DNA from: Nannocystales bacterium
GTDB lineage: Bacteria; Myxococcota_A; Polyangia; Nannocystales; Nannocystaceae
DNA: 64,000 nt
Assembly (NCBI GenBank): GCA_050633305.1
Contig: JBOEGF010000010.1
Location: 256,001 to 320,000 of the forward strand
Direction: 5' to 3'
Shown here in pieces: positions 40,097 through 58,857 of this stretch. The notes below the pieces were generated by a model, which was not told the origin of the DNA, made no database searches, and worked only from the letters and a program-made list of their open reading frames with translations. How positions within the stretch are numbered: position 1 is the first letter of the stretch; the number at the start of each line of letters is the position of its first letter. Position numbers and translations under genes: made by a program.

Positions 40097-40861
40097 GTGA
40101 CGTTCTCGCTGGGGTCCATCGACGACGTCGACGACGTCATCGAGGCGTTGGACACCGTGTTGGCGCTCGGTGTCCGTGGAAGACATCGGTGGGCCATCTT
40201 CGCGGCCATGTACCGCCGTGTGACCATCGCTGTGAAGCACGCGATCGAACGCGGTGAGTTCGACGACGGCCCACGCATGAGTCGGTTTGATGCCGTCTTC
40301 GCGCTGCGATACCTTCGCCCCCTACAAGCATACCTTCGCGGTGCGTCGGTGCCTCGGGCCTGGTCGGTTGCGTTTCGCGCCACCGAAGACCCGAGCCTCA
40401 CCGCGATGCAGTTGCTGCTGCTTGGGGTCAACGCGCACATCAATCTCGACCTTGGGTTCTCGGTGGTCGAGGCCGGCCTCGAACCCGAGCCGTTTCGGAC
40501 GGACTTCGACCGCATCAATGCGATTCTCGCCGGGGAACTCGATGGGGTTCAGGAGGCCCTCGATGCGGTCTCGCCGTGGTTGTCGGGGGTGGACCGAATC
40601 GCGGGGAGGGCAGACGAGCGTCTCGGCGTCTTTGTTGTGGTGCGGGCTCGAGACCAGGCGTGGCGTAGCGCCCGTGCGGCCGACTCGCGCTCGTCGCAGG
40701 AGCGGGCCGTGTACGAGGCCACCGTGGATCGGAACACGGCGGCGCTGGCGGAACGCATCGCGTACCCGCGTTTTCCGCTGTCGCTGCTGGTCCGGTTGAT
40801 CGGCTGGCGCGAGTCGTGGACCGTGCCGCGGATGGTTGAGCTGCTCGGACGACCGCTCTAG
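40097..40861 (+). CDS. DUF5995-like protein
   Basis: FAAMYRRVT, RFDAVFA..Y, LLLGVNAHINLDL, DFDRINAIL. Confidence 0.75.
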   Translation: MTFSLGSIDDVDDVIEALDTVLALGVRGRHRWAIFAAMYRRVTIAVKHAIERGEFDDGPRMSRFDAVFALRYLRPLQAYLRGASVPRAWSVAFRATEDPSLTAMQLLLLGVNAHINLDLGFSVVEAGLEPEPFRTDFDRINAILAGELDGVQEALDAVSPWLSGVDRIAGRADERLGVFVVVRARDQAWRSARAADSRSSQERAVYEATVDRNTAALAERIAYPRFPLSLLVRLIGWRESWTVPRMVELLGRPL

Positions 40862-42357
40862 CCGAACGTCCCGACGAGCCACACGAACGCGAAGTGTTGC
40901 GGGATGTTCCCCGCGAGGCGTACCCCTGCGTCGACAGGAAGAAACAGCGCGTACCCGGGTTGGACCATCAAGTACGGAGCCCACGGCTTCAGGGTGACGA
41001 AGGCGTCGAACTCGTGCCCCAGCCCCCGCCCAGTATTCGCGGGGTCCCACCCTGAGCCGACGAGGCCGCCGCCCGCGTTTGTCCACCGCCCCGTGGGCTC
41101 CTGCAGTTGCAAGTAGTGGTAGGCCAGCACCCCGGTCAGAAGCTTGTCGAACCCCAGCTTGGCGGCCACCTCGAGGTCGCGCATGTTGGACCAGTTCATC
41201 TGGTCGGCGATGCCGTAATGGATGTGGTTGGTCGGGAAGAAATTGTAGAAGTCGTTGCTGTCGGCGTTTGCACAGACGTCCGTGTCGCCTGAGCATCGGT
41301 GGCCGCTGGCCATCGCATAGCCCAGATGGCCCCCCGGCTTCACGCGGTGCTCGCCGTGCATGTATCCCAGACTCGCTGCCCAAGCCCACGCTCGATGGTC
41401 TTGGTCCCGAACCCGGCCCGTCTGTCCGTGTGCCTCGACGTCGTAGGTCAATCCTGCGAAGGGTGTGCCCCAGACCCTCCCACCGAAGTCGACGAGCCGA
41501 CGTTCGAAGCCCACATCTCCATCTCGACCGTCTTCGAACACGGCGAGTGACATTCCCTCGACGTTCACCGCCTCGTGGATGCTCAGGGCGAGTTTGGCTG
41601 CGGCGAGCTGCGCTCCGGACGAACTCTCGGATTGGGGCGGGTCTACGCTGTCGTCCGCCACGGTTCGTCGCGGGGCGAGCAGTGCCACAAACATGTCGAG
41701 CTCGACGATGGACGCCTTGCCGACTGCACGCACCGCGTCGAACGATCTTGCGCCGGGGAGCCATAGCAAGCTGCCGATCATGCGTTGCTTGCCCCACACC
41801 ACCTCCTGACGACCGGCACGGAGATATCCCGACGTCGTCTGGGACTCTGTCTCCCCCCCGATCTCCAAGAAGCCCTGATGAAGGTCGGTGTTGGCTTCGT
41901 TGGAGACCGTGGAGGCTTCGAAACCCCACGTTCGCGCGTCCTGAACTTGCGCGAAGGCTTTGAGCGGGCCCCAACGAGCGCCCAGTTGAACGCGTGCCCG
42001 CTGCAGGACGGTGCCCGTGTCAGGTGCGGAGCCCGCTCCAAAGTCGGGGTTCACCCTTCCTTGGCCTCGCAGAAACACTTGAACACCGGGCGAAAACTCG
42101 GGCTTGGGCTTGGCCGCGGCTTCGGGTTGGGTGTCGGCTGGGGGGCTGTCAGTCGAGGCGAGAGTGGCTGTTGGCTGTTGGAGAGGTGCCGGAGGCTCGG
42201 GAGGTGACGCGGGCGCTTTGTGGACCGGCTGGGGTTGTACGTCGGGAGCGTCGGCCTGTGGCGCCTCCACTGCGCTTGGACCCGTCGCGGGTCGAAGCGA
42301 CGGTTCGACGCTCGGGCCGATGATGAGAAGTGTGAGTGCGGAACTCGCAGCGATCAT
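40858..42357 (-). CDS. Alginate export (AlgE-like) outer-membrane beta-barrel; last gene of the nap operon
   Basis: FAQVQDARTWG, DLHQGFL, LRAGRQEV.WG.QRMIG, RSFDA, FPTNH..YG; ATGA-coupled to the upstream gene. Confidence 0.85.
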   Translation of the reverse strand: MIAASSALTLLIIGPSVEPSLRPATGPSAVEAPQADAPDVQPQPVHKAPASPPEPPAPLQQPTATLASTDSPPADTQPEAAAKPKPEFSPGVQVFLRGQGRVNPDFGAGSAPDTGTVLQRARVQLGARWGPLKAFAQVQDARTWGFEASTVSNEANTDLHQGFLEIGGETESQTTSGYLRAGRQEVVWGKQRMIGSLLWLPGARSFDAVRAVGKASIVELDMFVALLAPRRTVADDSVDPPQSESSSGAQLAAAKLALSIHEAVNVEGMSLAVFEDGRDGDVGFERRLVDFGGRVWGTPFAGLTYDVEAHGQTGRVRDQDHRAWAWAASLGYMHGEHRVKPGGHLGYAMASGHRCSGDTDVCANADSNDFYNFFPTNHIHYGIADQMNWSNMRDLEVAAKLGFDKLLTGVLAYHYLQLQEPTGRWTNAGGGLVGSGWDPANTGRGLGHEFDAFVTLKPWAPYLMVQPGYALFLPVDAGVRLAGNIPQHFAFVWLVGTFG

Positions 42358-42641
42358 GACTGTGGTGCCTGTGGGATCTGGTTTCGGACGAGGCGGGTCG
42401 CTGCGCCACGGGCGACGAGCGTGTCGCACCACCCTTTGCCGTCGTGCCGATAGAGAATCTGGACTCCGCGCACCCGGCCTTCGCGGAGTGCCGTGACCGC
42501 GTCGGCCAACCCGGGACTCTCCGAGGAATAGGAGGTTGCACCGCCCTTGACCCTGACTTCGTCGATTTGGGCACAGTCCGCGAGGTCGTCGACCAGGGCG
42601 CTCAGTTGGGCCTCATCGAGGTCGCCTTCGTACACGTTCAT
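42354..42641 (-). CDS. Small hypothetical protein (95 aa) in the nap operon
   Basis: ATGA overlaps at both ends; protein-like sequence MNVYEGDLDEAQL...GVQILYRHDGKGWCDTL. Confidence 0.7.
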   Translation of the reverse strand: MNVYEGDLDEAQLSALVDDLADCAQIDEVRVKGGATSYSSESPGLADAVTALREGRVRGVQILYRHDGKGWCDTLVARGAATRLVRNQIPQAPQS

Positions 42642-43384
42642 CCGAACCCCGGGTGCTGGTCTTTTTGCGCGGAGGAGCCGTGACACTGACGGCAATGGGT
42701 GCGCGTTGTGTGGGTGGTCCGCAGTGGGTTGGGGCCCGCCTCGCCATGGCAGGCATTGCAGCGCTCACGCATCCATGTGGTGTGCGGGATCATCGGAGGC
42801 GCGCCCGGAGCTGCACGCTCCCCGACGGAGCCCGGCCGACCCTCGAAGAGGTTCTCTCCGAAGTATGCGTCCGCGGCGGCAACATCGACGTTGGTGATGC
42901 CAGAGGACCCTGGGACGTGGCATTGCGTGCACGAAGGGTGCAGGTCGTGGCAGATCGTCGACGCCCGGTCGCCCATCGGAAACGCCATCCCATCGGCGTG
43001 GCATGTCAGGCACGCGGCGGAGCTGCGCTCCGTGATCGCGTGTGGCACCACTGGTGGAGCTCCATCGAACGCACGCCGCTCGGCGCGTTCAAGGAGCCAC
43101 CCCTCGCGTGTCGCCTCGTCCTGGCGGCCTCCGCCAACCGGTAGGTTGGCGAGCGCGCCATCGAATCCCTCGGGTTGCATCCACGGGGTTGCCCCGAGTT
43201 CCCGATAGGTTCGGGCCGGTGGTACCGACGACCCCTGCGAGCCGGCCGATTCCCGGTGCTCATGGTGTGACCGCTCCCCATTCTCCGCGGAGGGCATCAG
43301 GAGGCCGACCAAGGCGGAGCCCGCGACGAGCCCCCCCAGCAGCACGAACACGTTCCGCTGATTGTTGTAGTCGTCCCAGTTCAC
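42638..43384 (-). CDS. napB: NapB-like cytochrome c subunit with four CxxCH motifs
   Basis: N-terminal TM; RAFDGAPPVVPH..CLTCH..CTQCH then RAAPGAPPMIPH..CNACH..CRQCH; immediately follows napA. Confidence 0.8.
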   Translation of the reverse strand: MNWDDYNNQRNVFVLLGGLVAGSALVGLLMPSAENGERSHHEHRESAGSQGSSVPPARTYRELGATPWMQPEGFDGALANLPVGGGRQDEATREGWLLERAERRAFDGAPPVVPHAITERSSAACLTCHADGMAFPMGDRASTICHDLHPSCTQCHVPGSSGITNVDVAAADAYFGENLFEGRPGSVGERAAPGAPPMIPHTTWMRERCNACHGEAGPNPLRTTHTTRTHCRQCHGSSAQKDQHPGFG

Positions 43385-43385
43385 T

Positions 43386-45764
43386 TCACGCCCTCCGAAC
43401 TCGTGCTGCGCACTTCTTGTAGTCGGGCTGCTTGGAGAACGGGTCGTACGCCTGGAGTGTCAGGTTGTTGACCTGCAAACGCTCGTCGAAGAAGGGAATG
43501 AAAATGTTCCCGCGCTGTGGAGCTCCGCGACCGTCGATCCACGCTGTCAGTTCCAACTGGCCCCGACGTGTCTCCACGACGACCTTCTGACCATCCTGCA
43601 CGCCAAGCTCGGCGGCATCTTCGGGGTTCAACTCGACGTACGCTGATGGCATGGCCCGCCTGCAGGGACGCATGCGCATCGTCATCGTGCCGGAGTGCCA
43701 ATGCTCGAGGACTCGCCCGGTACACAGCCACAACGGGTACTCCGCGTCGGGGACCTCCGGTGGCGCGACGTAGGGCCTCAACCACAGCTGCGCCCGGCCA
43801 TCCTTGGTGGTCGAATGATAGAAGTCCACCCCCTTGCCTTCTTCTACGTACGGGTCGTAGCCCTCCGCGAATCGGAAGCGCGTCTCCTTCCAAGACCCGT
43901 CGTCTTGCTGGACCACGGGCCACCGCATGCCTCGTGCCTTGACGTACTCGGAGTAGGGGGCGAGGTCCTTGTGCTTGAGCCGCGAGAACTTGCGGTACTC
44001 CTCGAACAGTTGCTCGTCGACGTTGATGTCGTAGTAGCGGTCGAAGTTCCAGACCTGCACTTCTTTGCCCGCTTCGTCTTCCATGCGGAACAAGAACTTG
44101 CCGTCCCGGTCCTTCATCTCGGGACGCCCGCGGTCATACAGACGGCGTGCGACTGCAATCGTCTGCCAGCAGTCGTCCCGTGCCTCTCCCGGCGGTTGCA
44201 CCATCTTGAACCACTGTTGGGTCCGGCGCTCCGAGTTGCCGACCATGCCGTTCTTCTCCACCCACATCGCCGAGGGCAAGACCAAGTCGGCGATCTCGGT
44301 GGTTGCGGTTGGGTAGACATCCGACACGATGAGAAACGCGTCCTCTCGCTTGCGGGAAGGAGCGACGAGCGCACCTCGGTTGGGCAGAGTCTGCGCCGGG
44401 TTGGTGACCTGCACCCAGATGGTGTGGATGTCTCCGCCCTCCTTCGAAAACGACTCCCACATCGCGACGGTGTGAAGACCGGGCTTGGGGTTCACGCGAC
44501 CCGGTGGGAGATTCCAGATCTTCTCGGTCTGCTCGCGATGCGCGTCGTTCTTGACGACCCGCCCACCGGGAAGCGCGTGGGCCAAGGTGCCGACTTCTCG
44601 GACGGTGCCACAAGCCGAGGGCTGCCCGGTGAGGCTCGTGGGAGCATCCCCAGGTTTCCCGAAATGCCCGCTGAGTAGGTGCACGCCGTGGACCATCGAG
44701 TTGACGGCCGTACCCTGGGTGTGTTGGTTCATTCCCATGCACCACAGGCTCGTGATGCGGAGTTTGGGGTCGCCGAAGAGGTCGGCGAGCATCTCGACCT
44801 GGGCCGCCGGAACTCCGCTGAGCTCCTCCACCCGTTGCGGCGTGTACTCGGCCAGTCCCTCCCGATACTCCTCGAAAGTGATCGGCTTTCCGTGAAGCGA
44901 TGGCGGATCGCTATCCGCCCGGAATGCGCAGTGGTCTTCGACAAACTTGCTGTCGTAGGAACCGCGCTCGAGCAAGAGGTGGGCTATCCCATTTGCGATC
45001 GCCATGTCGCCCTGGGGCTTCATCGCGAGATAGTCGTCGGCGAAATCCGTGCTCCGCGTACGACGGGTTCCGATGTCGATGATTCGGACGTCCTCGCCCT
45101 TTTCTTGGCGCGCGAGAACCCGGGAGAACAAGATGGGATGCATCTCGGCGGGGTTGTTCCCCCAGAGAATCAGGACATCGCAGACATCGAGGTCGTCGTA
45201 GCATCCCGCCGGTTCGTCCACGCCGTAGACCGCGAGAAACCCCGTGACGGCGGAAGCCATGCACAATCGTGCGTTGGGATCGATTTGGTTGTTGGCCAGG
45301 CCTCCTTTGATGAACTTCTGGGCCGCGTACCCCTCGGGAATGGTCCACTGGCCTGAGCCATAGAATCCAAAACCGTCAGGACCCTTCTCGACCCGATCCG
45401 CGATCACGTCGATCGCTTCGTCCCACGAGATCGGCACGAGCTTTCCATTCTTACGAAGCAGCGGTTGGCGCAGTCGGTCGGCTCCGTAGAGCGCCAATCC
45501 CACGTGGTAGCCCTTGACGCACAGCAAGCCCTTGTTCACCTCGGCTTGCTTGTCACCTCGAACCGCAACCACCTCGCCTTCGGCAACGCCGACTTCGACG
45601 TGGCAGCCCGTCCCGCAGAACCGGCACGGAGCCTTGTTCCATTCCAGACCCTCGGGAGGATTGGCGAGCTCCTCGGTCGGCAAGACCGCCAGTGCATCAC
45701 GGCTCGCGCTCGCGGCTGCGGCAACCGCCGCTCCCTTCATGAAGTTGCGTCGTGTTCCCGTCAT
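43386..45764 (-). CDS. napA: Periplasmic nitrate reductase catalytic subunit
   Basis: Tat signal TRRNFMKG; CRFCGTGC [4Fe-4S]; GSGQWT; NARLCMASAV (Mo-Cys); LTGQPSACGTVREVG; TGRVLEHWHSG; DPFSKQPDYKKCA. Confidence 0.95.
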   Translation of the reverse strand: MTGTRRNFMKGAAVAAAASASRDALAVLPTEELANPPEGLEWNKAPCRFCGTGCHVEVGVAEGEVVAVRGDKQAEVNKGLLCVKGYHVGLALYGADRLRQPLLRKNGKLVPISWDEAIDVIADRVEKGPDGFGFYGSGQWTIPEGYAAQKFIKGGLANNQIDPNARLCMASAVTGFLAVYGVDEPAGCYDDLDVCDVLILWGNNPAEMHPILFSRVLARQEKGEDVRIIDIGTRRTRSTDFADDYLAMKPQGDMAIANGIAHLLLERGSYDSKFVEDHCAFRADSDPPSLHGKPITFEEYREGLAEYTPQRVEELSGVPAAQVEMLADLFGDPKLRITSLWCMGMNQHTQGTAVNSMVHGVHLLSGHFGKPGDAPTSLTGQPSACGTVREVGTLAHALPGGRVVKNDAHREQTEKIWNLPPGRVNPKPGLHTVAMWESFSKEGGDIHTIWVQVTNPAQTLPNRGALVAPSRKREDAFLIVSDVYPTATTEIADLVLPSAMWVEKNGMVGNSERRTQQWFKMVQPPGEARDDCWQTIAVARRLYDRGRPEMKDRDGKFLFRMEDEAGKEVQVWNFDRYYDINVDEQLFEEYRKFSRLKHKDLAPYSEYVKARGMRWPVVQQDDGSWKETRFRFAEGYDPYVEEGKGVDFYHSTTKDGRAQLWLRPYVAPPEVPDAEYPLWLCTGRVLEHWHSGTMTMRMRPCRRAMPSAYVELNPEDAAELGVQDGQKVVVETRRGQLELTAWIDGRGAPQRGNIFIPFFDERLQVNNLTLQAYDPFSKQPDYKKCAARVRRA

Positions 45765-47041
45765 GGCGTGGTCGTTTCTGCCGAGGTGTCGTTGTCCTCG
45801 GGTGCGGTGTTGGAAGTCGAGCTGAGTTGCTCAGCGCCGCTGTACACAGCGACCGAGAGCTTCGCGCCTATCGTGTAGATCATCAGCCCCAGGGCCCAGA
45901 TCCCGACCGAGACCTTCCACTCCACCAGGTTGGGCACGTACTCCACGATTTCGTGCAGGGTGCTCGGGACGAAGCCGGGGACGATGAGGCCCATGCCTTT
46001 CTCGATCCAGATCCCCGCCAGTGCGAAGGCGCAGCCCACGTTGACGCGGAACCTGTTCCGGCGAACGCTCGAGAAGACGAAGATGATGGCTGACGTGACG
46101 TTCAGCGCGATCGAGGACCAGATCCACGGGACTAGCGCGTCATGCCCATCGAGCCCCCGATAGAGGTAGATAGCGCCCGCCGCGTGTGCACCTCCGGTGT
46201 AGAAGAGCGTGAACACTTCGGACAGCATCAAGAATAGGTTGACGATCGCCGTCACCCGCATGATCGCGAGCAACGTGCGAAGTGGCCCGTCTCCCATGTC
46301 GAAGGAGGTCACCCGGCGCACGATCTGCAACGCGACGAGGATGAACGCGGGCCCGGTTACGAACGCAGAGGCGATGAAGCGCGGCGCCAGGATCGCTGTG
46401 TTCCAGAACGGCCGACCGCCGAGTCCCGAGTACAGGAATGCCGTGACGGTGTGGATGGAGACCGCCCAGACGATCGACATCAACACGACCGGAACGTAGA
46501 ACCTCGCGGTTGGCCGCACGCCGATGAAGCGCGTATAGAGGAGGTACCCGGCGATGTGCAGGTTGAACAGCAGATAGCCGGACAACACGATCACATCCCA
46601 GGTGAGCATCGACATCGGCCAGTTGAAGCGGCCGATGCCCGGGATGATGTGCCAGAAGCGGTCGGGGCGACCAATGTCGACGGCCACGAACCCCAGCGCC
46701 ACCACGATCGCTGCGATCGCGAGGAACTCCCCTGCGAGCACCACTTTGTGCATCTCGTGGTCTTTGTAGAGGTAGGCGGGGATGACCATCATGACCCCGC
46801 CCGCCGCAAGGCCGACGAAGTACGTCAGGTTGGCGATGTAGATGCCCCACGAGACGTGGTCGGACATCGCGGTCACGCCCATGCCCTCCGCAGTCTGCCG
46901 GCTGAACGCGTCCAGGCCGACGAGCATGACGAGGAACAACCCCCCCATCCACGCGTAGTAGTAGCCATTCCCCTCGAGCGAGGAGAGGAGGCACCGCAGC
47001 AGGAAGCGCGGGTAGCTTTGGCTGTGGAGGGGTTTACTCAT
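45761..47041 (-). CDS. nrfD: NrfD/PsrC/DsrP-family integral membrane quinol-interacting subunit
   Basis: WGIYIANLTYFVGLAAG, DIGRPDRF, SMLTWD, SIHTVTAFL, APRFIASAF; about 10 TM helices. Confidence 0.9.
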   Translation of the reverse strand: MSKPLHSQSYPRFLLRCLLSSLEGNGYYYAWMGGLFLVMLVGLDAFSRQTAEGMGVTAMSDHVSWGIYIANLTYFVGLAAGGVMMVIPAYLYKDHEMHKVVLAGEFLAIAAIVVALGFVAVDIGRPDRFWHIIPGIGRFNWPMSMLTWDVIVLSGYLLFNLHIAGYLLYTRFIGVRPTARFYVPVVLMSIVWAVSIHTVTAFLYSGLGGRPFWNTAILAPRFIASAFVTGPAFILVALQIVRRVTSFDMGDGPLRTLLAIMRVTAIVNLFLMLSEVFTLFYTGGAHAAGAIYLYRGLDGHDALVPWIWSSIALNVTSAIIFVFSSVRRNRFRVNVGCAFALAGIWIEKGMGLIVPGFVPSTLHEIVEYVPNLVEWKVSVGIWALGLMIYTIGAKLSVAVYSGAEQLSSTSNTAPEDNDTSAETTTP

Positions 47042-47939
47042 CGAAAAAGTAGAAGAACCGAGGTTTTGTTCCGAGTTCCTCTTTGAGGACGAAGACCCGC
47101 TTGTTCTCCAAGATCCAACGGATTTCTGACTCGGGGTCGAGCACGTTTCCGAACACTCGGGAACCGGTTGGGCACGCTTCGAGGCATGCAGGCAGTCGAC
47201 CTTCACGAGTTCGGTGCAGGCAGAACGTGCACTTCTCGATCACACCCTGAGGTCGGATGCGGTTGGAGAGGTACGCCTGATCGGGGTTGATCTCTTCTGC
47301 AGGGATCTCGGGCTTGTGCCAGTTGAACCGGCGGGCGTGGTAGGGGCACGCCGCCTCGCAGTAGCGGCATCCGATGCACCAGTCGTAGTCGACGACGACG
47401 ATGCCGTCGGACTCCTGCCAGGTGGCCTCGACCGGGCAGACCTTCACGCACGGGGCGTTCTCGCACTGCTGGCACTGCACCGGCATGTAGAACTTGTCTT
47501 TTGCTGGAACCGGGTGGTTGTAGCCCGCGTTGCCGTGCTCGAAGTCCATGCTGCCCTTCTCCATCTCGAACACACGGATGTAGGACTGGTGTGAGGCGCG
47601 GTCGTGGTTGTTCTCCAGGTGGCACGCCTCTGCACACTTCCGGCATCCGTTGCAGATGCTCAGGTTGAGGGCGTACCCGAAGACGACGCCAGGTATCGGG
47701 CGAACATCCTTGATCTCGACGTCGGCGCCGTACTCCGCTTTGCATGCTGCTTCGTGCCGAGCCAGGACCTCCGCCAGGTCATCCGGACCGAGTTCTCGGT
47801 AGTGGTCCTGAAGGAAACCGTCGAGATCGAGCCCCTCTCCCCACTGAGCAAGCGGAGCGACGGCCTTGAGGAACCCTGCGCCCCCGAGCGTCGCGCCAAG
47901 GACTTTTAGGTGCGTGCGCCTCGTTGTCTTTGTTTTCAC
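47034..47939 (-). CDS. Tat-exported 4Fe-4S dicluster protein (NrfC/DsrO-like)
   Basis: TRRTHLK Tat signal; CNGCRKCAEAC, CQQCENAPCVKVCP, CIGCRYCEAACP, KCTFC..PACLEACP. Confidence 0.92.
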   Translation of the reverse strand: MKTKTTRRTHLKVLGATLGGAGFLKAVAPLAQWGEGLDLDGFLQDHYRELGPDDLAEVLARHEAACKAEYGADVEIKDVRPIPGVVFGYALNLSICNGCRKCAEACHLENNHDRASHQSYIRVFEMEKGSMDFEHGNAGYNHPVPAKDKFYMPVQCQQCENAPCVKVCPVEATWQESDGIVVVDYDWCIGCRYCEAACPYHARRFNWHKPEIPAEEINPDQAYLSNRIRPQGVIEKCTFCLHRTREGRLPACLEACPTGSRVFGNVLDPESEIRWILENKRVFVLKEELGTKPRFFYFFDE

Positions 47940-48634
47940 TCGTGTCGCTCCAAGTCAGCGGGGGGCGGCTCGGGGTACACGACGGGGTACGCGGGAACAT
48001 GCGCGCCGTGGCAGGCCAGACAGTGGTTTCGCTCGCGCGGACCACGGCTCAGGTCCCAGTACCCATTCATGCCTCCGTGGGCGCCGTGGTCGTAGTCTCG
48101 TTTCTGCGGGCCATGGCACTGCGCGCACAGCCGCATGGCATTGGGGAACTCGACGTGCTGTCCGTCCGCGAGCCGCAAACGGTCTCGGTTGTCGCGGTCG
48201 TGGCACGCGTAGCAACTGAGGTCGCCGTGCGAGAGCGAGATCGACGCGTGTACGACCCGCCCCTGAGGGTTCTGAGCTGCCATCCCGCCGTCCGACCCCG
48301 CATGGCAGACGGAACACGCGACGACGACCGGCTTACCCGTCGAAGTTCGGTCTTGTGTTCGGAGCCCCGCGGCTGCCTCGCGCCAACGGATCGTGGTCGG
48401 ATGAACGTTGTCCGACGTTCGGGCGCTCGCCTCTCCCGATGCCACGGCTCTCGACTCGCAACCGACCCCGCCGAAAAGGAACGCAACACCCAGCAGAGCC
48501 AAGCGGGCGCCGTACTGGAGGGGCAGAAGTGGCTCCGCGGCCCGCTGGGGAGGGCTCCGGCGGAAGGCGTCGTCCCCGTCGCCGGCTTCCGCAGATCGCG
48601 TCGAGTAGCTTGTCACGCATTGGTTGCGTAACAC
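47936..48634 (-). CDS. Tetraheme cytochrome c, probable lipoprotein (true start probably downstream, e.g. TTG 48502)
   Basis: CSVCH, CYACH, CAQCH, CLACH; lipobox-like GVG-C; stop overlaps the next GTG. Confidence 0.85.
   Translation of the reverse strand: MLRNQCVTSYSTRSAEAGDGDDAFRRSPPQRAAEPLLPLQYGARLALLGVAFLFGGVGCESRAVASGEASARTSDNVHPTTIRWREAAAGLRTQDRTSTGKPVVVACSVCHAGSDGGMAAQNPQGRVVHASISLSHGDLSCYACHDRDNRDRLRLADGQHVEFPNAMRLCAQCHGPQKRDYDHGAHGGMNGYWDLSRGPRERNHCLACHGAHVPAYPVVYPEPPPADLERHE
48611..48633. promoter_or_regulatory. Imperfect palindrome, candidate regulator site upstream of the nap operon
   Basis: TGTCACGCA-N5-TGCGTAACA (8/9 symmetric) in a lower-GC patch. Confidence 0.45.
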
Positions 48635-48889
48635 CGTTCAACACCCTCAGAACGGCCCAAATCGTCATGTTAGGCAGCAATCGCTGCGGGGTGGGGGAGA
48701 GGGGGAACGCAGGAGATTCCGGCAAGAAAGACGGTTCTCCGTGCACGGCCACGTGTGGCCCCCATCGTGGTTCGGTGGCGAGCGAAAGGTGGGCGCGTTT
48801 TATCCGCCTGCAGTCGTTTGAGGACGGGGAGGTCGCCGACGTGTCGTGGACCGCGGTTTCGCTGGGCAGCTGGAGACCGGGCGGGGTTG

Positions 48890-49594
48890 CTAGAGCGAGC
48901 CGGCGATCTCTTCGACGATGCCCTTCGCGGCGGTGGCAGGGTCTTCGGCCTTCATGATGGGTCGGCCCACGACGAGGTGCGTCGCGCCACGCTCGATCGC
49001 CATCGCTGGCGTCATGACTCGCTTCTGGTCGCCGACCGCGGAGCCCGCGGGTCGAATCCCCGGCACCACCTTGAACAAGTCTGGCGCTGCAGCGCACACG
49101 CGCTCCAGTTCCTGGCCGCTACACACGAGTCCGGCACACCCTGCCTCCGCTGCGCACTTGGCCCGCATTTCGACCAACTCGGCTGCGGACCGGGTGTGCC
49201 CCGCTTCTTTGCACGCTTGCTCATCTTGGCTGGTCAGGACGGTGACGGCGAGGATGCCGAGGTCGTCACCGGCTTCCTCGACGCAGGCCTTGAGGTGCTC
49301 GACACCGCTGCCCGCATGTACCGTCACGAATCGTGCGCCGAGGCTTCTTGCGCTGGCGATCGCACCGCGCATCGTGTTGGGGATGTCGTGGATCTTGAGG
49401 TCGAGGAACACGTCCACGTCGGGAAATCGCTCCCGCAGCGTTCGAACGACACTGGGCCCCTCGGCGATGAAGAGCTGAAGCCCGACCTTGAACATGCCGA
49501 CACTTCCTTGGAGCTGCTCCGCGCTCGCAAGCGCAGTTGCGGCATCAGGAACGTCCAGGGCGACGATGAGGCGGCTTCGAGCGCTGTCGGTCAC
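48890..49594 (-). CDS. pyrF: Orotidine 5'-phosphate decarboxylase
   Basis: LIVALD, FKVG, FLDLKIHDIPNT, VTVLTS, PGIRP, DQKR, VVGRPI; GTG 49594. Confidence 0.96.
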   Translation of the reverse strand: MTDSARSRLIVALDVPDAATALASAEQLQGSVGMFKVGLQLFIAEGPSVVRTLRERFPDVDVFLDLKIHDIPNTMRGAIASARSLGARFVTVHAGSGVEHLKACVEEAGDDLGILAVTVLTSQDEQACKEAGHTRSAAELVEMRAKCAAEAGCAGLVCSGQELERVCAAAPDLFKVVPGIRPAGSAVGDQKRVMTPAMAIERGATHLVVGRPIMKAEDPATAAKGIVEEIAGSL

Positions 49595-49640
49595 GGCCCG
49601 GTTGTAGCGTGCTGGCTCTTCAGCAGGCAAGCTCGGCCGC

Positions 49641-50780
49641 ATGACCGATTCTCGTCAAGCGTTGTTCGAGTTGCTCGAGTCTGGCGTGGGAGAGGTCTTC
49701 CCCGGTTGTGTCGCGCTGGTATGGCGCGACGGCGCGACGCTCTACCACGAGGCCCACGGAACGGTTGCCACGCACCGGTGGATCCCCGCCGAAGGGAAGC
49801 CGGTGGTTCGTGAGCAGATCTACGACCTTGCCTCGCTGACCAAGATCTTGTGCACGACGTCGCTCGTCGGGCTCGCGGTCTCCGAAGGGGCCCTCGAACT
49901 CGACATGCCGGTGCCTGAACCGTGGAACGCTGGGTGCCCGGGAGCCACGCTTGCCGACCTGCTGGAGCATTGCTCTGGCTATCCCGCACATCGGGAGTAC
50001 TTCAACGAGGTCGAGCCCTACAGCGCGGAGGGGATCCTCGAGAAGATCGCTGCGACGCCGCCCGACTACCCGCTGCGGACGAAGGCGGTCTACTCGGACT
50101 TGGGGTTCATGGTGCTGGGCCGATGGTTGGAGCAGGCGTATGGCCGTGACCTCGACGTGTTGTTCACCGACAAGGTGATGCTCGCCCTTGGGCTTGATGA
50201 TTCACCGATTCCGCATCTTGGGTTCTATCCGCTCAACGGAAATCCTCCCCCGCCGCGTCCGCATCTCGAGCGCATCGCTCCGACCGAGGTCTATGACCCT
50301 GACCTCCATCCCAGCGGAGTACCCTCGCACTTCGATATGCGGAAGAACGCGGCGGTTGCCCATGGGCTTGTGCACGACGACAACGCGTACGTTTGGGGAG
50401 GCGTTGCTGGCCACGCCGGGCTCTTCGGGACCGCGCATGGCGTCCTGGAGGTTGCGAGAGCCTGGGTCTTGAATCTCCTGCCGGGACTGACTCCGGCGGT
50501 GCGCGACCGGTTCTGGCAGCCGAGCACCGTGGTGGGATCGACGCGGCGGCTGGGATGGGACGGACCGTCTGAGGATGGCTCGGGAACCGCCGGCAATGCC
50601 GTCACATCCGCCGCGGTGGGGCACACCGGCTACACGGGCACAAGTTTGTGGGTCGACCCCAACGCACACGGAGGCCCCACGATCTGCGTTCTGCTGAGCA
50701 ACCGCGTGCATCCGATTCGTACCAACGATGCGATTCGGAGGTTTCGTCCCCGGTTCCACGAAGCAGCGTTTGCGCTCTGA
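49641..50780 (+). CDS. Serine hydrolase, beta-lactamase family
   Basis: YDLASLTK (SxxK), YSDLGF, VHDDNA, GHAGLF, GHTGYTGT, LSNRVHP. Confidence 0.9.
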   Translation: MTDSRQALFELLESGVGEVFPGCVALVWRDGATLYHEAHGTVATHRWIPAEGKPVVREQIYDLASLTKILCTTSLVGLAVSEGALELDMPVPEPWNAGCPGATLADLLEHCSGYPAHREYFNEVEPYSAEGILEKIAATPPDYPLRTKAVYSDLGFMVLGRWLEQAYGRDLDVLFTDKVMLALGLDDSPIPHLGFYPLNGNPPPPRPHLERIAPTEVYDPDLHPSGVPSHFDMRKNAAVAHGLVHDDNAYVWGGVAGHAGLFGTAHGVLEVARAWVLNLLPGLTPAVRDRFWQPSTVVGSTRRLGWDGPSEDGSGTAGNAVTSAAVGHTGYTGTSLWVDPNAHGGPTICVLLSNRVHPIRTNDAIRRFRPRFHEAAFAL

Positions 50781-53712: not shown

Positions 53713-55155
53713 CTAGCCGTTGATGCAGCTGGGGGGGGCGCCGTCAACGAGCTCGAGCGTGGCGACCTGGCTCTCGCGTGGGGTCAGGAAAGCGGGCGCG
53801 CCAGCGTTCGACCAGCAGACATCTCCGTCCGCGTTGAAGCTCTCGATCTCGATCGCGTAGCCGCCCCACGTCACTGAGTCCATTGAAGTGACGGAGTCGG
53901 TTTTACACGGAGAGAGACTGCCATCGAGCGGAGCCTGGAGCGCATCGATCGGTTGCCCGACGACATCGAGGACGCGGTAGCGAACGTCCGGGTCGCCGAT
54001 CCGGGCGTCGCCGCAGTAGGCCACTTCGGGTCCGTCTTCCCCGGGAACCAGGAACTGATATTGGAACCAAAGCGATCCTTCGAGGGGTTCGAGGAGGTCA
54101 ACATCCGCGAAATCGAGTTCAAGTGAACGCGGCGTTGCGACCCCTGCATCGTTGACCGTGAACTCAAGCGTCTTTCCGACCGTGGCCGGAGTCGGTCCCC
54201 CGACGCCGGTGCGAAGGCCTGTGACCGTCAGGTCGTGGGGCCCCACAGCGAGCGGGGTACTGAACCGTGTCTTGCCGACGATGCACTCGATGGGGTCCAG
54301 CGCGTTGCCGTCGATGGTGAGGTCGAGCAAGCCAACGGTGATGTTGTCGCAGTCCGCGACCGGGTTGCCCGAGAGCACGGAGAGGTTGAGCTCGAGCTCC
54401 GGGTTGAGGACGGGGGTCGATTCGCTGACCCCGAGCTGGCAGCCCGGATCGAGTTGGTCGACGAGCCCGTCCGCGTCTCCGTCGATCCCGTCTTCGCAGT
54501 CGGGAGGGGCTGGAAGGACAAAGTCGTCCAGCCGTCGCGTCTTTTCCGCTTCCACCGTGAATGTCGTGCAGTCGCAGCTTTCGAGCCCGACGTTGCATTC
54601 GCCGTCAACACACAGCGGCGTCCCAGCGGAGTGTGCGGCTTCGAGGAAACCCTCGACCGTGGCGCCCGTGCAGTCCCCAGACTGGGTGTCGGTTTCGTCC
54701 GAGCCGACGAAACCGTCGGAGTCGGAGTCGGAGTCCGGGTCCGAGTCGACCGGCGCCAGGCTGTCGGGACACGTCCCCCAAGGCAGTCCATTGGTCCGGG
54801 TTCCGGCGATGACCAAGGTGTAGTCGCCGGGCGAAAGTGTGGCACCGCGAATCGACCCGCCTTCTTGTCGGAACCGCTCCGGAAAGCAGGGGCGGTCGAA
54901 CTTGTCGGCGAGCAGGTTCAACTCGTCGTAGACCCAGACTTCAACGTCGGAGACGCCGGCGCGCGAGCAGATCGCCGGGCTAGACATCTCGATGTCCTGC
55001 GGCGCCACAGTCGCGGGGTCGGTGCTGGTGCGCGGCTCAACCCGCCATCGAATCGCGTAGCTTCGCTGCTCTTGGCAGCCACTGGCGGCGAGTGCGAGCC
55101 CGATCAGGGCTCCAAAGGTCGAGAGTCGCACGAAGCGGCGTTTTAGCCCTCGCAT
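53713..55155 (-). CDS. Cys-rich acidic lipoprotein
   Basis: Lipobox ASG-C; DCEDGIDGDADGLVDQLDPGC motif; DS repeat. Confidence 0.75.
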   Translation of the reverse strand: MRGLKRRFVRLSTFGALIGLALAASGCQEQRSYAIRWRVEPRTSTDPATVAPQDIEMSSPAICSRAGVSDVEVWVYDELNLLADKFDRPCFPERFRQEGGSIRGATLSPGDYTLVIAGTRTNGLPWGTCPDSLAPVDSDPDSDSDSDGFVGSDETDTQSGDCTGATVEGFLEAAHSAGTPLCVDGECNVGLESCDCTTFTVEAEKTRRLDDFVLPAPPDCEDGIDGDADGLVDQLDPGCQLGVSESTPVLNPELELNLSVLSGNPVADCDNITVGLLDLTIDGNALDPIECIVGKTRFSTPLAVGPHDLTVTGLRTGVGGPTPATVGKTLEFTVNDAGVATPRSLELDFADVDLLEPLEGSLWFQYQFLVPGEDGPEVAYCGDARIGDPDVRYRVLDVVGQPIDALQAPLDGSLSPCKTDSVTSMDSVTWGGYAIEIESFNADGDVCWSNAGAPAFLTPRESQVATLELVDGAPPSCING

Positions 55156-55949
55156 GGAAGGTTGGCAAGGTCGATGACGTGGGCCTCGGCACCTTGCCCA
55201 ACCTCCAGATCGAGGGTGCACACCGTGGCGTCTACCGCGACGTCGAGCAAGTAGTGGCCGGGATCCACCTCGAGGATGGTGTGCGCGGACGGGAGCTCAG
55301 CGCAGGCAGCCGGCGTTCCGGACAGGGAAAGCCCCTGTTCGCTCTCCAGTGCCTCCCGGTACAGGAGGGAGGTGACCGCTGTACCGTCCTCATTGAGCGG
55401 CGGCTCGGCGAGGTCGGCGTCCAGCTCTGCGTAACGAAGCGAGAGCGAGACTTCGTCGCAGGTGTCGGTTTGCTCGAGGCTCAGCTGCATCTCGACGGGT
55501 TCGAGCCCGAAATCGAAATCTTGGAGCGTGATGGTGCGCTCGAGCACATCGATCTCCATCGTTCTGGCGCGCCGGGTGTTTTCCGCGCCGGCGGGGGTCT
55601 CGCTCACGATGTCGACCAGAACCTCGTATTTCTTGGGGCGGAGCTCGACGAAGGCGTCGGAGGACTCCGTCGCGAACTCGGAGATCGTCTGGTAACCGGT
55701 CCCACAGTCGTAGCGAAAGATCTCGGAGCGCGAGGCATCGGTGGTGTCGGTGATCGAGAAGACCACCTCGTCGACCCGTCCCCCTGCGCACGAACGCAAG
55801 CGCTGGCCGTCCTCGCCGTCGATGGTGTTGACCTCGACGAAGCGCCACGAGAACTCCAATCCGGTCGGCTCATCTGCAGGCAGGACGCAGGCCGACACAA
55901 ACAGACATCCCAGCCACGGAAACCACTTACTCACAACCACATCCTTCAA
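55143..55949 (-). CDS. Acidic lipoprotein
   Basis: Lipobox VSA-C; LEFSWRFV; paired Cys. Confidence 0.7.
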   Translation of the reverse strand: MKDVVVSKWFPWLGCLFVSACVLPADEPTGLEFSWRFVEVNTIDGEDGQRLRSCAGGRVDEVVFSITDTTDASRSEIFRYDCGTGYQTISEFATESSDAFVELRPKKYEVLVDIVSETPAGAENTRRARTMEIDVLERTITLQDFDFGLEPVEMQLSLEQTDTCDEVSLSLRYAELDADLAEPPLNEDGTAVTSLLYREALESEQGLSLSGTPAACAELPSAHTILEVDPGHYLLDVAVDATVCTLDLEVGQGAEAHVIDLANLPCEG

Positions 55950-56523
55950 GATCCAATGAGCCGCTCCCCGAGGGGTTGCCCTCCTGATCCATGCCGACGA
56001 CCAGTTGGAAAACCTGCAAATCGGTCACGAGACCGGGGTGTACTACGCGTTCCCGCGGTCCGGGAGCTGCGATGCATGCGTCCAAGTCCCGGCACTCATT
56101 TCCGTCGGCCTGGGTGATCACAGGACTGATCGTGAACTGATACGGGGCATCCGAGGACGGGACGGAGGGGTTGCTGCCTCGTGAGCGGTCACAGTCGAAG
56201 CCCAATGGGGCGACGACTTGGCAGTCTGGATCCTCGCATCCTCCAGCACACTCGGGATCGCAGATGACGAGCTCCGCCGCGAGGTCATAGCGAACCTGGT
56301 CAGAACCGTTTCGGCCAGGCAGAGCACACGATGAGGTTCGGCCCAGATCGAACACGCCTGAGGGGAAGATCGGGTCGCCGTCTCGGTCGACAAACGCCCA
56401 AGCCCACTCGACCACTCCCGTGTCGACCGAGCATCCCGGGGCCGCGACCAACACGCTGGCCACCGCGATCGCCAAAGCGCCTCGCACAAGAGGCAGTCTG
56501 GAGCAGTCCGAGGGGCGGGGCAA
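55927..56523 (-). CDS. Cys-rich lipoprotein
   Basis: Lipobox-like APG-C; VEWAWAFV; CDPECAGGCEDPDC. Confidence 0.7.
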   Translation of the reverse strand: MPRPSDCSRLPLVRGALAIAVASVLVAAPGCSVDTGVVEWAWAFVDRDGDPIFPSGVFDLGRTSSCALPGRNGSDQVRYDLAAELVICDPECAGGCEDPDCQVVAPLGFDCDRSRGSNPSVPSSDAPYQFTISPVITQADGNECRDLDACIAAPGPRERVVHPGLVTDLQVFQLVVGMDQEGNPSGSGSLDLEGCGCE

Positions 56524-56601: not shown

Positions 56602-57336
56602 GTGAACGCGCCCTCGATCGCCCTCTTCGCCGCTTCGGCTCCTTCTGCGCTTGTCGCAGAGGTGGACCTCATCAAGTTGCTCACGTCGTCGAAGGGGATC
56701 GTTCTCGGCGTCGTGATTCTGCTGCTGTTGCTGGTCGCGCTGTGCATCTTCGTGATCATCTTCAAGTTCATCCAGGTCACGATGGCGCAGTCGCAGTCCG
56801 TCGCGTTCCTGGACAAGTTCTGGAAGAGCAAGCGTCTCGACGACATCTATCGGGTGGCGGAAGGCGCCAAGAGCAGCCCGATCGCCGCGATGTTCCGTGC
56901 CGGCTACATCGAACTGTCGAAGGTCAAGAAGTCGCAGGCCGAAGGCGACAACGCGAGCATGCACGACAAGCTGGGCGATGCCGACAACGTCGAGCGCGCG
57001 TTGGCTCGTGCCAAGCTGGCCGAGACCACCAAGCTCGAGAACCTGCTTCCCTTCCTGGCGACGACCGGTTCTGCAGCCCCGTTCATCGGCCTGTTTGGGA
57101 CCGTTTTCGGCATCATGGAGGCGTTCCTCAACATCGCGGCTGCGGGCCAAGCAGAGCTTTCCGAGGTCTCGCAGCCTATCGCTGAGGCTCTGGTCACCAC
57201 GGCGCTCGCGCTCGCCTCAGCGGTCCCCGCAGTGGTCGCCTACAACTACTTCCAGCGGCGTCTGAAGGTCCTGGGGTCGGAGATGAGCAACTTCGGCTCC
57301 GACTACATGAACATCGTCAAGCGCCACTTCTTCTAG
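56602..57336 (+). CDS. tolQ: TolQ (MotA/TolQ/ExbB proton channel)
   Basis: FLATTGSAAPFIGLFGTVFGIM, IAEALVTTA, PAVVAYN; context with tolR and tolB. Confidence 0.88.
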   Translation: MNAPSIALFAASAPSALVAEVDLIKLLTSSKGIVLGVVILLLLLVALCIFVIIFKFIQVTMAQSQSVAFLDKFWKSKRLDDIYRVAEGAKSSPIAAMFRAGYIELSKVKKSQAEGDNASMHDKLGDADNVERALARAKLAETTKLENLLPFLATTGSAAPFIGLFGTVFGIMEAFLNIAAAGQAELSEVSQPIAEALVTTALALASAVPAVVAYNYFQRRLKVLGSEMSNFGSDYMNIVKRHFF

Positions 57337-57363
57337 GGGCTGCTTCCGCCCAGACGACCCAGC

Positions 57364-57819
57364 ATGGCGAACAAGTTCATCAACGACGCTCCCAGTGACG
57401 CGAACGAACCCATGGGTTCGATCAACGTCACGTCGCTCGTCGACGTGATGTTCTGCCTGCTCATCATGTTCATGGTCGCGACGCCGCTGATGTCGCCCGA
57501 GGGCATGGACGTCGATCTTCCCGAGGGCCGCGGGGAAGAGATCACCGAGGAGGAGTTCTTCTACTCGATCATTTCGGTCGACAAGACCGGCAAGGTTTTC
57601 CTCGGCACGCTGCCGCTGTCCCAGGACAAGGACAAGCTGGCGGAGGAGCTGAAGAACAACGTCAAGGTCAAGGAAGACGGCAAGGTCTTCATCCAGGGTG
57701 ACCGAAATGTGCCGTACGAGCGGATCGTTGACGTCCTCGTTGCGTTGAAGCAAGCAGAGGTCTCGTCCGTCGGGTTCATTGCGGACCCGCACATGAAGCG
57801 AGTCCGAGGAAGCGAATAG
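57364..57819 (+). CDS. tolR: TolR (ExbD/TolR)
   Basis: INVTSLVDVMFCLLIMFMVATP with the conserved Asp; IQGDRNVPY. Confidence 0.88.
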   Translation: MANKFINDAPSDANEPMGSINVTSLVDVMFCLLIMFMVATPLMSPEGMDVDLPEGRGEEITEEEFFYSIISVDKTGKVFLGTLPLSQDKDKLAEELKNNVKVKEDGKVFIQGDRNVPYERIVDVLVALKQAEVSSVGFIADPHMKRVRGSE

Positions 57820-57825
57820 AGCCAA

Positions 57826-58857
57826 ATGCCCAGTTCACTCGACGCTGCACCCAAGGTCTATGGTGGCGATTTCCGTGAGCTTTTCCGGAATCCGTTCGCG
57901 CTCGTCGTCGCGGTCCTAGGGTGCGGGCTCACCCTCAGCCTGATGGTCTTCTTGGCCTATCAGATGAGCCGAGACTGCATCGCCACCTTCGAAAAGGCTT
58001 GGGTCGAGCACGGCGATCACGAACTTTACAACGAGGCGTTTCAAGACGCGGTCCTCGCGGACTGTGACTCCCTCGAAGACGAGGTCTGCTTGCTCCAGAT
58101 CAAGACGCGGTGGCTCGCGGACGACATGGACGTCCACGGCATCACCTTCAACCTTGCGGTGACCGAGGCCTGCCCCGCGGAGACCGAGGACGAAGACGAG
58201 TTCGAGATCGACTTCGAGCCCGGCACGCTCGTCAAGCTCGGCGTCGAGATCGACGAGAAAGAGATTCCCGAGAAGATCATCATCCAAGAGACCCGGGCCG
58301 AAGAAGAAGAGATTCCCGAAGAGGCGGTCACCGAGGACGAGGAAGCCAAGCCCGCCGAGGAAAAGCCCGAAGAGGAAGAGAAGCCCAAAGAAAAGCCCAA
58401 GGACAAGCCCAAGAAGCCGGTCGAGAAGAAAGACAAGAAGCTTCCAACGTCCAAGCTTCCCACGAAGAAAAACACCCCCTACGACGACCTGCCCACGCAG
58501 ACCGTGCAAAAGGGGGACCCATTCGGTGACCCCGGGGGCTGGTCCGACCTCAAGAAGGACGGCGATCCCTGGGCAACTCAGGTGATGAAGGCCCTCAACA
58601 ACATGCCGGTCGGCGCCTTCGGGGCGAAGATGGGCAAGGGCACGACCAAGTTCCAGATCACCCTGTGCAAGGACGGCAAGGTGAAGAAGGTGCAGAAGAA
58701 GGGCGGCAGCTTGAGCGCAGCCGACCAGGCCCGAGTGGCCAACGCAGTCCGCTCGCTCAATCTCCCCAAGCCCCCGGCCAAGGTCGCGAAGAACATGAAG
58801 GGCAGCTGCGCCAAGATCAAATACACGTTCGTCTGGTCCAACGGCGGCGTGAAGTAG
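57826..58857 (+). CDS. TolA/TonB-like energy transducer, copy 1
   Basis: Position between tolR and tolB; TM, Glu/Lys/Pro-rich linker, TonB_C-like C-terminus. Confidence 0.7.
   Translation: MPSSLDAAPKVYGGDFRELFRNPFALVVAVLGCGLTLSLMVFLAYQMSRDCIATFEKAWVEHGDHELYNEAFQDAVLADCDSLEDEVCLLQIKTRWLADDMDVHGITFNLAVTEACPAETEDEDEFEIDFEPGTLVKLGVEIDEKEIPEKIIIQETRAEEEEIPEEAVTEDEEAKPAEEKPEEEEKPKEKPKDKPKKPVEKKDKKLPTSKLPTKKNTPYDDLPTQTVQKGDPFGDPGGWSDLKKDGDPWATQVMKALNNMPVGAFGAKMGKGTTKFQITLCKDGKVKKVQKKGGSLSAADQARVANAVRSLNLPKPPAKVAKNMKGSCAKIKYTFVWSNGGVK

Follow-up and report, generated by a model that had tools for sequence, protein, structure and literature searches.

A nitrate reductase operon of a Nannocystales bacterium in which a DsrP-type module probably takes the place of NapC or NapGH

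The window analysed here is a 64,000-nucleotide stretch of the genome of a Nannocystales bacterium (NCBI GenBank assembly GCA_050633305.1, contig JBOEGF010000010.1, positions 256,001 to 320,000 of the forward strand; coordinates below are those of the window unless a locus number is given). A run of seven genes between 48616 and 40858 encodes the periplasmic nitrate reductase NapA together with a NapB-type cytochrome, a three-gene module for quinol oxidation, a small protein and a porin. The usual electron donors of Nap on the quinol side are NapC or NapGH. On balance, sequence comparison leads us to favour a reading in which NapA and its tetraheme NapB would be fed by a quinol dehydrogenase of DsrP-like, DsrO-like and tetraheme subunits that replaces NapC/NapGH and probably does not pump protons. 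That the module feeds Nap is highly probable and, provided that it does, an absence of pumping is fairly likely.

The cluster begins with a tetraheme c-type cytochrome that has a lipoprotein-type signal and four CxxCH motifs (47936..48616), a DsrO-like 4Fe-4S protein with a twin-arginine N-terminus (47034..47939), and a DsrP-like membrane protein of the NrfD family with ten hydrophobic peaks and the quinol-site residues kept (45761..47041). These are followed by napA, with a Tat signal and the iron-sulfur (FeS) and molybdenum (Mo) residues (43386..45764), a doubled NapB made of two tandem GAPPxxPH..CxxCH..H..CxQCH diheme units (42638..43384), a conserved 95-residue protein of no known family, with a QxxYxxxGxxWxDT motif and a predicted small alpha/beta fold (42354..42641), and an outer-membrane porin of the alginate-export family (PF13372, 138.7) with a Pro-rich N-terminal linker (40858..42357). 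An earlier sequence-only reading had described seven overlapping or abutting genes in this order, and indeed all seven lie on the minus strand with intact frames, joined in order by overlaps of 4, 8 and 4 nucleotides, a 1-nucleotide gap and two further 4-nucleotide overlaps.

Judged by its signal, motifs and residues, the NapA of the cluster is a periplasmic nitrate reductase. Its scores against the NCBIfam NapA profiles were 892 (cut-off 904) and 858 (cut-off 931), with the next family at 450, and the closest solved structures are the NapA proteins of C. necator, E. coli and C. sphaeroides (E 1e-218 to 5e-207). The FeS cysteines C47/50/54/82 aligned with those of D. desulfuricans and C. necator NapA, as did K84, C168 (the Mo ligand), M169, M343, Q347, Q381 and R389. 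These catalytic residues are kept in 76-77 of 77 relatives, with C168, M169 and K84 present in all 77. The NapB-like protein contains four CxxCH motifs and scored 26.5 against the Pfam NapB profile (cut-off 25.1); behind an N-terminal hydrophobic segment, the NapB diheme domain (PPxIPH..CxxCH..CxQCH) occurs twice, and the sole PDB match of the doubled protein was NapB itself (E 0.22).

The membrane protein and its FeS partner had been read from the sequence as NrfC/NrfD-like. The family assignment held (NrfD Pfam, 133.7 bits), but the pair is not NrfC/D proper. The membrane protein exceeded the NCBIfam DsrP cut-off (398.5 against 350), fell far under those of NrfD (24 vs 348) and QrcD (44 vs 570), and is 22% identical to the host's own ActC; the best profile of the FeS protein was DsrO (187, cut-off 200). 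In a quick tree of the membrane protein (75 rows, SH-aLRT support only, 18 of 71 napA-linked rows retained), 58 tetraheme-linked proteins formed one clade (SH-aLRT 98), sister to a 14-row clade (SH-aLRT 93) that contained all 11 dsrMKJOP proteins. By these profile and tree comparisons, the pair groups with DsrO/DsrP and not with NrfC/D, Qrc or Act.

Residues expected at a DsrP-type quinol site are also retained. In the DsrP-like protein Y68, D122, S144 and D149 are 100% conserved in 70 clade rows, and match the D. vulgaris DsrP site (PMC8076601 Table 2; this and the other sources cited here were available to us in part) by residue type and spacing only. In an alignment with R. marinus ActC, D122 falls on His139 of the quinol site and K348 on R395; K348 and E374 are conserved, and E374 is spaced as Glu359 of DsrP. 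The FeS protein has an RR motif at residues 7-8 that is conserved in a 40-row alignment, and retains the Tyr between the proximal-cluster cysteines (Y193). A His before the CIGCR motif is present in 11 of 11 canonical DsrO proteins and in none of 75 napA-linked DsrO-like proteins; from its spacing to Arg154, we infer that the missing residue corresponds to the DsrJ heme ligand His148 of the DsrMKJOP structure preprint (bioRxiv 10.64898/2026.08.25.746951). The module cytochrome (database product 226 residues) has four further invariant His besides its four CxxCH, so that its hemes are likely all bis-His with a role in electron transfer; a structure search gave no close solved relative.

We then asked how tightly this module is tied to napA elsewhere, taking as related loci the top 80 of the 634 that a search by NapA similarity alone had given in genomes. 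The three genes adjoin napA in 76 of these 80, and the four misses have less than 500 bp of upstream DNA at contig ends; thus the pairing is not due to chance. The module is divergent from napA in 63 of the 76 and co-linear in 13. At two loci (L081 and L082) the FeS gene immediately precedes napA, and the membrane gene immediately follows a NapB fusion; the gene order there is cytochrome, FeS protein, napA, 17-heme cytochrome and membrane protein, the NapB-like domain being fused into the 17-heme cytochrome (L081:7703-9742, L082:8100-10139).

The association also held when approached from either gene. In an even sample of 300 genomes of the same phylum, at least 57% identity for the membrane protein and at least 64% for NapA gave 50 genomes with the former, 49 with the latter and 47 with both. 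The two genes lay within 7 kb of each other in 46 of the 47 double carriers; the membrane protein occurred alone in three genomes and NapA alone in two. A second sample covered 251 genomes of the phylum of Novipirellula, where napA was searched for only in the 53 with a membrane-protein match. Here 34 genomes encode the membrane protein at 52% identity or more, and 27 of these have napA within 7 kb: 23 this NapA type (the centre genome included) and four another type with an octaheme gene between. Among the remaining seven, the membrane gene is beside the octaheme gene alone in four, stands alone in one and is on split contigs in two. In Bacteroidota the whole set occurs in one run on a plasmid, so that the earlier suggestion of similar clusters in other phyla was correct for both Planctomycetota and Bacteroidota. 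The Flammeovirga homologue (L141:8944-10161) is part of an operon with the order napD-napA-cytochrome-cytochrome-FeS, carried by a 640-kb plasmid, and is annotated as sulfate-reduction DsrP.

The carriers in general lack the canonical donors. NapH was over cut-off in one of 48 carrier genomes and a NapC/NirT-family protein in three. By hand count, nitrite reductases in the 48 comprise NirK in 33, NrfA in 17 and NirS in 7; 39 have at least one of the three, and in 12 nirK is no more than 10 kb away. Together with the two-way co-occurrence and the kept residues, the rarity of NapH and NapC supports the alternative quinol-to-nitrate chain that had been put forward from the sequence.

The sequence-only reading had also stated that the operon has no napC, napGH, napD or napF. 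This stands for the present genome (11.0 Mb, 92% complete), in which napC, napD, napG and napH were nowhere over cut-off, napD was also missed by a clade-built profile, and napF, searched for by tblastn with the clade's ferredoxin only, gave one weak match outside the cluster. As a trait of the system, the lack of napD and napF does not stand. Our first tblastn found napD in just 2 of 80 loci; however, a profile built from seven NapD-like proteins (two of them over the Pfam cut-off) and iterated once placed a napD-like gene immediately before napA in 76 of the 80, which rules out a system without napD. Furthermore, the gene after napB encodes a NapG/NapF-like ferredoxin in 41 of 80. Because most relatives keep napD and about half a ferredoxin, the cluster described here is best seen as a trimmed copy.

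The 95-residue protein was considered as a replacement for NapD and rejected: it is present in 61 of the 80 related loci, with napD alongside in 59, and it also adjoins the module without napA at L095, L106 and L111. It matched neither Pfam nor the clade-built NapD profile. In a fold search with its predicted model (pLDDT 91) nothing rose above noise and NapD was not among the matches, the best being within noise (Z 6.8, root-mean-square deviation 3.8 over 88 residues), and an Atlas search returned unnamed clusters only, all below 0.9. The protein may help to assemble the module. The porin adjoins only 7 of 80 related loci, making it an occasional passenger, and is a possible entry route for nitrate.

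We propose the following path. Oxidation of menaquinol would take place at a periplasm-facing site of the DsrP-like protein, by analogy with DsrP, with protons released outside. Electrons would pass to the 4Fe-4S clusters of the DsrO-like protein and to the lipid-anchored tetraheme cytochrome, then to tetraheme NapB and the FeS and Mo centres of NapA, a path with a putative total of eight hemes, and nitrate would be reduced to nitrite by NapA in the periplasm. Since the protons released from quinol and those consumed with nitrate would be on the same side, there would be no net charge movement, and energy would come from the upstream dehydrogenases and not from the module step. According to the structure preprint, DsrP binds menadiol close to its periplasmic face, from which a path for protons leads outwards; because quinol oxidation of this type releases protons to the periplasm, we regard electroneutral transfer as likelier. 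In most carriers, denitrification or ammonification would start with this chain.

The host genome suggests a more limited role in this organism. NrfA, NirK, NirS, octaheme genes, NirB and clade II NosZ were not found in the genome, and no nitrite, NO or N2O reductase was seen. NarG was not among eight other molybdoenzyme-family regions scanned, and the genome showed two heme-copper oxidases only, one aa3 and, judged by reading its sequence, one cbb3-like. Because no nitrite reductase was found and its congeners lack this napA, the chain here would end at nitrite and be accessory. With napD also not found, the cluster may be an accessory island that serves most likely as a low-oxygen electron sink. 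The further suggestion that the operon implies anaerobic respiration in the lineage is thus weakened, as nitrogen oxide reductases acting after Nap were not found and none of six congeners has this napA.

Several points weigh against the interpretation of a dedicated, electroneutral donor. The identity thresholds of the same-phylum survey were placed at visible gaps after inspection, and related genomes are not independent. At the NapB contact of C. sphaeroides NapA, S772 is replaced by R762 in this NapA. PMC13223375 lists NapD, absent here, as a maturation factor. The genome also encodes an alternative complex III (ACIII) and a cytochrome b/c protein that could reduce NapB. Furthermore, members of the module family also occur next to other acceptors and next to nap operons in which napGH is already present (L083, L084, L123, L170 and L173), so proximity is no proof of a dedicated role, and because putative cytoplasm-side channel residues are kept, charge movement is still conceivable.

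This last point leads to the alternative that survives best, although we hold it to be unlikely: the same path, but with the DsrP-like subunit coupling quinol oxidation to vectorial proton transfer, which would make this an energy-conserving Nap chain, as the sequence-only reading had thought possible. Menaquinol to nitrate is a drop of about 0.5 V, which is ample for pumping, and many carriers retain a three-gene module instead of the one-gene NapC. T73, Y90, E105, Y156, H197, T200, R210, R221, E275, H286 and K348 are kept, K348 being the residue that aligned with the ActC arginine, and they are counterparts of the residues proposed for two half-channels and a gate lysine in D. vulgaris DsrP (PMC8076601 Table 2). 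However, conserved polar residues of this channel type may be structural. For QrcABCD no pumping was detected and the gate arginine was non-essential, and pumping by ACIII is unconfirmed (PMC13059093); the DsrMKJOP structure preprint, for its part, saw nothing in DsrP that would obviously support vectorial proton transport. A broader hypothesis, that the trio is a widespread minimal complex III which pumps protons while feeding NapA, octaheme HAO-like enzymes and NirS, and that the DsrOhPh-tetrahaem locus of cable bacteria belongs to the same family, strikes us as quite doubtful. If it were true, Nap would be energy-conserving in myxobacteria, planctomycetes and Bacteroidota, in contrast to textbook Nap, and DsrOhPh-tetrahaem would be the quinol-to-periplasm exit of cable bacteria.

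It is also rather improbable that this genome has a stranded and poorly functioning copy, one that was acquired into a variable slot, has shed napD and the ferredoxin and lacks a nitrite reductase downstream. The cluster lies between bPH_2/DUF5995 genes and pyrF (40097-48890), bordered on the left by the DUF5995 gene (40097..40861, plus strand) and on the right by pyrF (48890..49642, minus strand). These flanks are syntenic around an empty or otherwise filled slot in all five congeners examined, none of which has nap genes there; the slot measures about 0.1 kb in one of them, and in the other four it contains 2.2-5.7 kb of different, unannotated cargo. This napA is present in none of 23 family members, nor in the congeners, and a napD kept by 76 of 80 relatives was not found genome-wide even with the clade-built profile, all of which, like the missing nitrite reductase, fits such a copy. 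On the other hand, the frames are intact, every catalytic residue is kept and the GC content at third codon positions (GC3) equals that of the host, with no compositional sign of recent transfer. napD is likewise absent at L021, L053, L054 and L180, and missing genes may simply be unassembled in a genome of this completeness. A sigma-70 scan gave no sites, terminators were below shuffle level, no FNR/CRP-like box was found by pattern in the 284 bp upstream, and a sequence-run search listed no RNA dataset with the cluster sequence, while one DNA run, which may stem from the source sample, held exact short pieces of the cluster and its flanks at similar low depth.

Least probable, and in our view very unlikely, is that the module is a general periplasmic quinol:cytochrome c reductase and that NapB draws on a shared cytochrome pool, filled also by ACIII or a bc-type complex, the genes being neighbours through low-oxygen co-regulation. 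Several findings would fit this: module and napA diverge in 63 of 76 loci, Rrf2 regulators lie close to 14 loci, sister modules stand alone or next to a variety of other acceptors, and the host has ACIII and cytochrome b/c genes. However, the near one-to-one co-occurrence of the subclade with this NapA (47/50 and 47/49), the gene overlap with napA here and the adjacencies at L081 and L082 argue against it.

In sixty further regions, more distant modules adjoin cytochrome cd1 clusters, octaheme HAO-like genes (PF13447), large multihemes and nap operons with napGH, and related NapA-NapB4 units without the module adjoin a Rieske/cytochrome b pair and octaheme genes (L138, L140). Both observations fit a picture in which quinol oxidases and acceptors can be exchanged, and since sister modules adjoin NirS, octaheme HAO-like or multiheme cytochromes, the module looks like a plug-in quinol dehydrogenase. 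At L083, L085, L105 and L108 it forms part of cytochrome cd1 (nirS/nirN/nirF-type) clusters that also contain a c554-like tetraheme, and L110 and L116 have the same layout; it occupies there the place expected for a NirT-type donor. A sister branch stands directly before an octaheme HAO-like gene at L170-L173 and L175-L178 (Planctomycetota), and at L089, L092-L094 and L123. We take these octaheme proteins to be nitrite reductases. Four of these octaheme loci continue into a second NapA type with a tetraheme, two of them adding napG/napH, and are candidates for a one-locus nitrate-to-ammonium cluster. Modules next to cytochrome b genes and to cytochromes with 9 to 33 hemes (L088, L091, L097, L112, L114 and L121) are suggestive of extracellular electron transfer. 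A dsrMKJOP-like gene run occurs in eleven same-phylum genomes (L117-L120, L127-L129, L132-L134 and L137).

Other observations concern the host's redox proteins. The ACIII genes lie on contig C7 (L166), followed by cytochrome c oxidase and moaA, and a cytochrome b fused to three c-type hemes is encoded at L165:3399-5657. On contig C24 an arsenite-oxidase-family large subunit (L163:6383-9522; NCBIfam 385.7 vs 359), with a 183-residue upstream partner, could be AioA- or IdrA-like, and a formate dehydrogenase alpha subunit on contig C23 (L164:3067-5814) has one in-frame TGA, possibly selenocysteine; a match to an UshA-like (seleno)protein lies at L165:5711-7519. Elsewhere in the window, three consecutive minus-strand ORFs at 53713-56523, lipoprotein-like, cysteine-rich and matching no scanned family, adjoin a tolQ/tolR-like gene run (56602-58857).

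The operon type is common, occurring in about one in six of the 300 sampled same-phylum genomes. Nitrate reduction genes have already been reported as widespread in Myxococcota (bioRxiv 10.64898/2026.07.10.737566, available part), and a 2026 review (PMC13223375) distinguishes four nap operon types: napEDABC, napDAGHB, napCMADGH and napAGHBFLD. The present layout recurs in several phyla and is outside these four as given in the available text; because a common operon type thus falls outside them, nitrate reduction is probably modelled incorrectly in myxobacteria and planctomycetes. As pipelines label the membrane gene as sulfate-reduction DsrP, false calls of sulfur metabolism are also possible. 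Moreover, cultured Archangium, Sorangium, Novipirellula and Flammeovirga offer a DsrP-type quinol module whose acceptor is simple and can be assayed, and therefore proton pumping by NrfD-family proteins becomes directly testable.

The system resembles canonical Nap in its NapA with all catalytic residues, in its NapB-type partner and, in most relatives, in the napD upstream. It differs in that the cluster has neither NapC nor NapH, NapB is doubled to four hemes and quinol oxidation would be by an NrfD-family protein; neither NrfD nor DsrP occurs in the available text of the 2026 review. With DsrMKJOP it shares a membrane protein over the DsrP cut-off, 40-42% identical to DsrP of dsrMKJOP operons, the quinol-site Asp, Ser and E374, and an FeS partner closest to DsrO. 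Unlike DsrMKJOP, it has no dsrM, dsrK or dsrJ at the locus, the genome giving no match to dsrM and one weak match to dsrK (23%), it forms a separate sister clade, a tetraheme replaces the triheme DsrJ, the DsrO His is absent and electrons would remain in the periplasm. NrfABCD, MccACD, QrcABCD and ACIII likewise combine an NrfD-family quinone module with an FeS protein and a multiheme cytochrome, and NrfCD is a precedent for feeding a periplasmic N-oxide reductase (PMC12285233). However, the present cluster has no ActB/QrcB molybdopterin-like subunit and no ActF, its scores are far below those cut-offs, and the true ACIII of this organism is encoded elsewhere in the genome.

Full-text literature yielded no description of this operon type, within a scope lying outside subscription journals, bioRxiv supplements and Tables S1/S2 of PMC13047784, and the available parts of PMC9386147, PMC10926707, PMC10949509, PMC11896075 and PMC12285233 contain nothing on it. 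Two partial precedents can be named: Thermosulfurimonas TDIS_0606-0609 (two multihemes, an FeS protein and a membrane anchor) lies near nap and was suggested to couple to nitrate reduction (PMC4911364), and a multiheme-FeS-NrfD cluster is downstream of Nap genes in two subsea-tunnel metagenome-assembled genomes (PMC10732223). In the available text neither names the module as DsrP-like or as a replacement of NapC/NapGH, and we liken them by description. The closest parallel is the DsrOhPh-tetrahaem or pACIII locus of cable bacteria and some Gamma- and Betaproteobacteria (PMC13047784, Table S3; PMC11976967), which is also found in organisms without sulfur metabolism (PMC13047784). In searches with the module proteins, the cable-bacterial and proteobacterial organisms were not among the best 120 matches listed, and this likeness, too, is one of description. 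Like our module, DsrOhPh-tetrahaem combines a bis-His tetraheme with DsrO-like and DsrP-like proteins, stands apart from dsrMKJ and branches separately from canonical DsrP; unlike it, the module described here is tied to napA and no TMH1 gene was seen beside it. Two 2026 papers call the function of that module unknown, and the cluster described here suggests a job for it.

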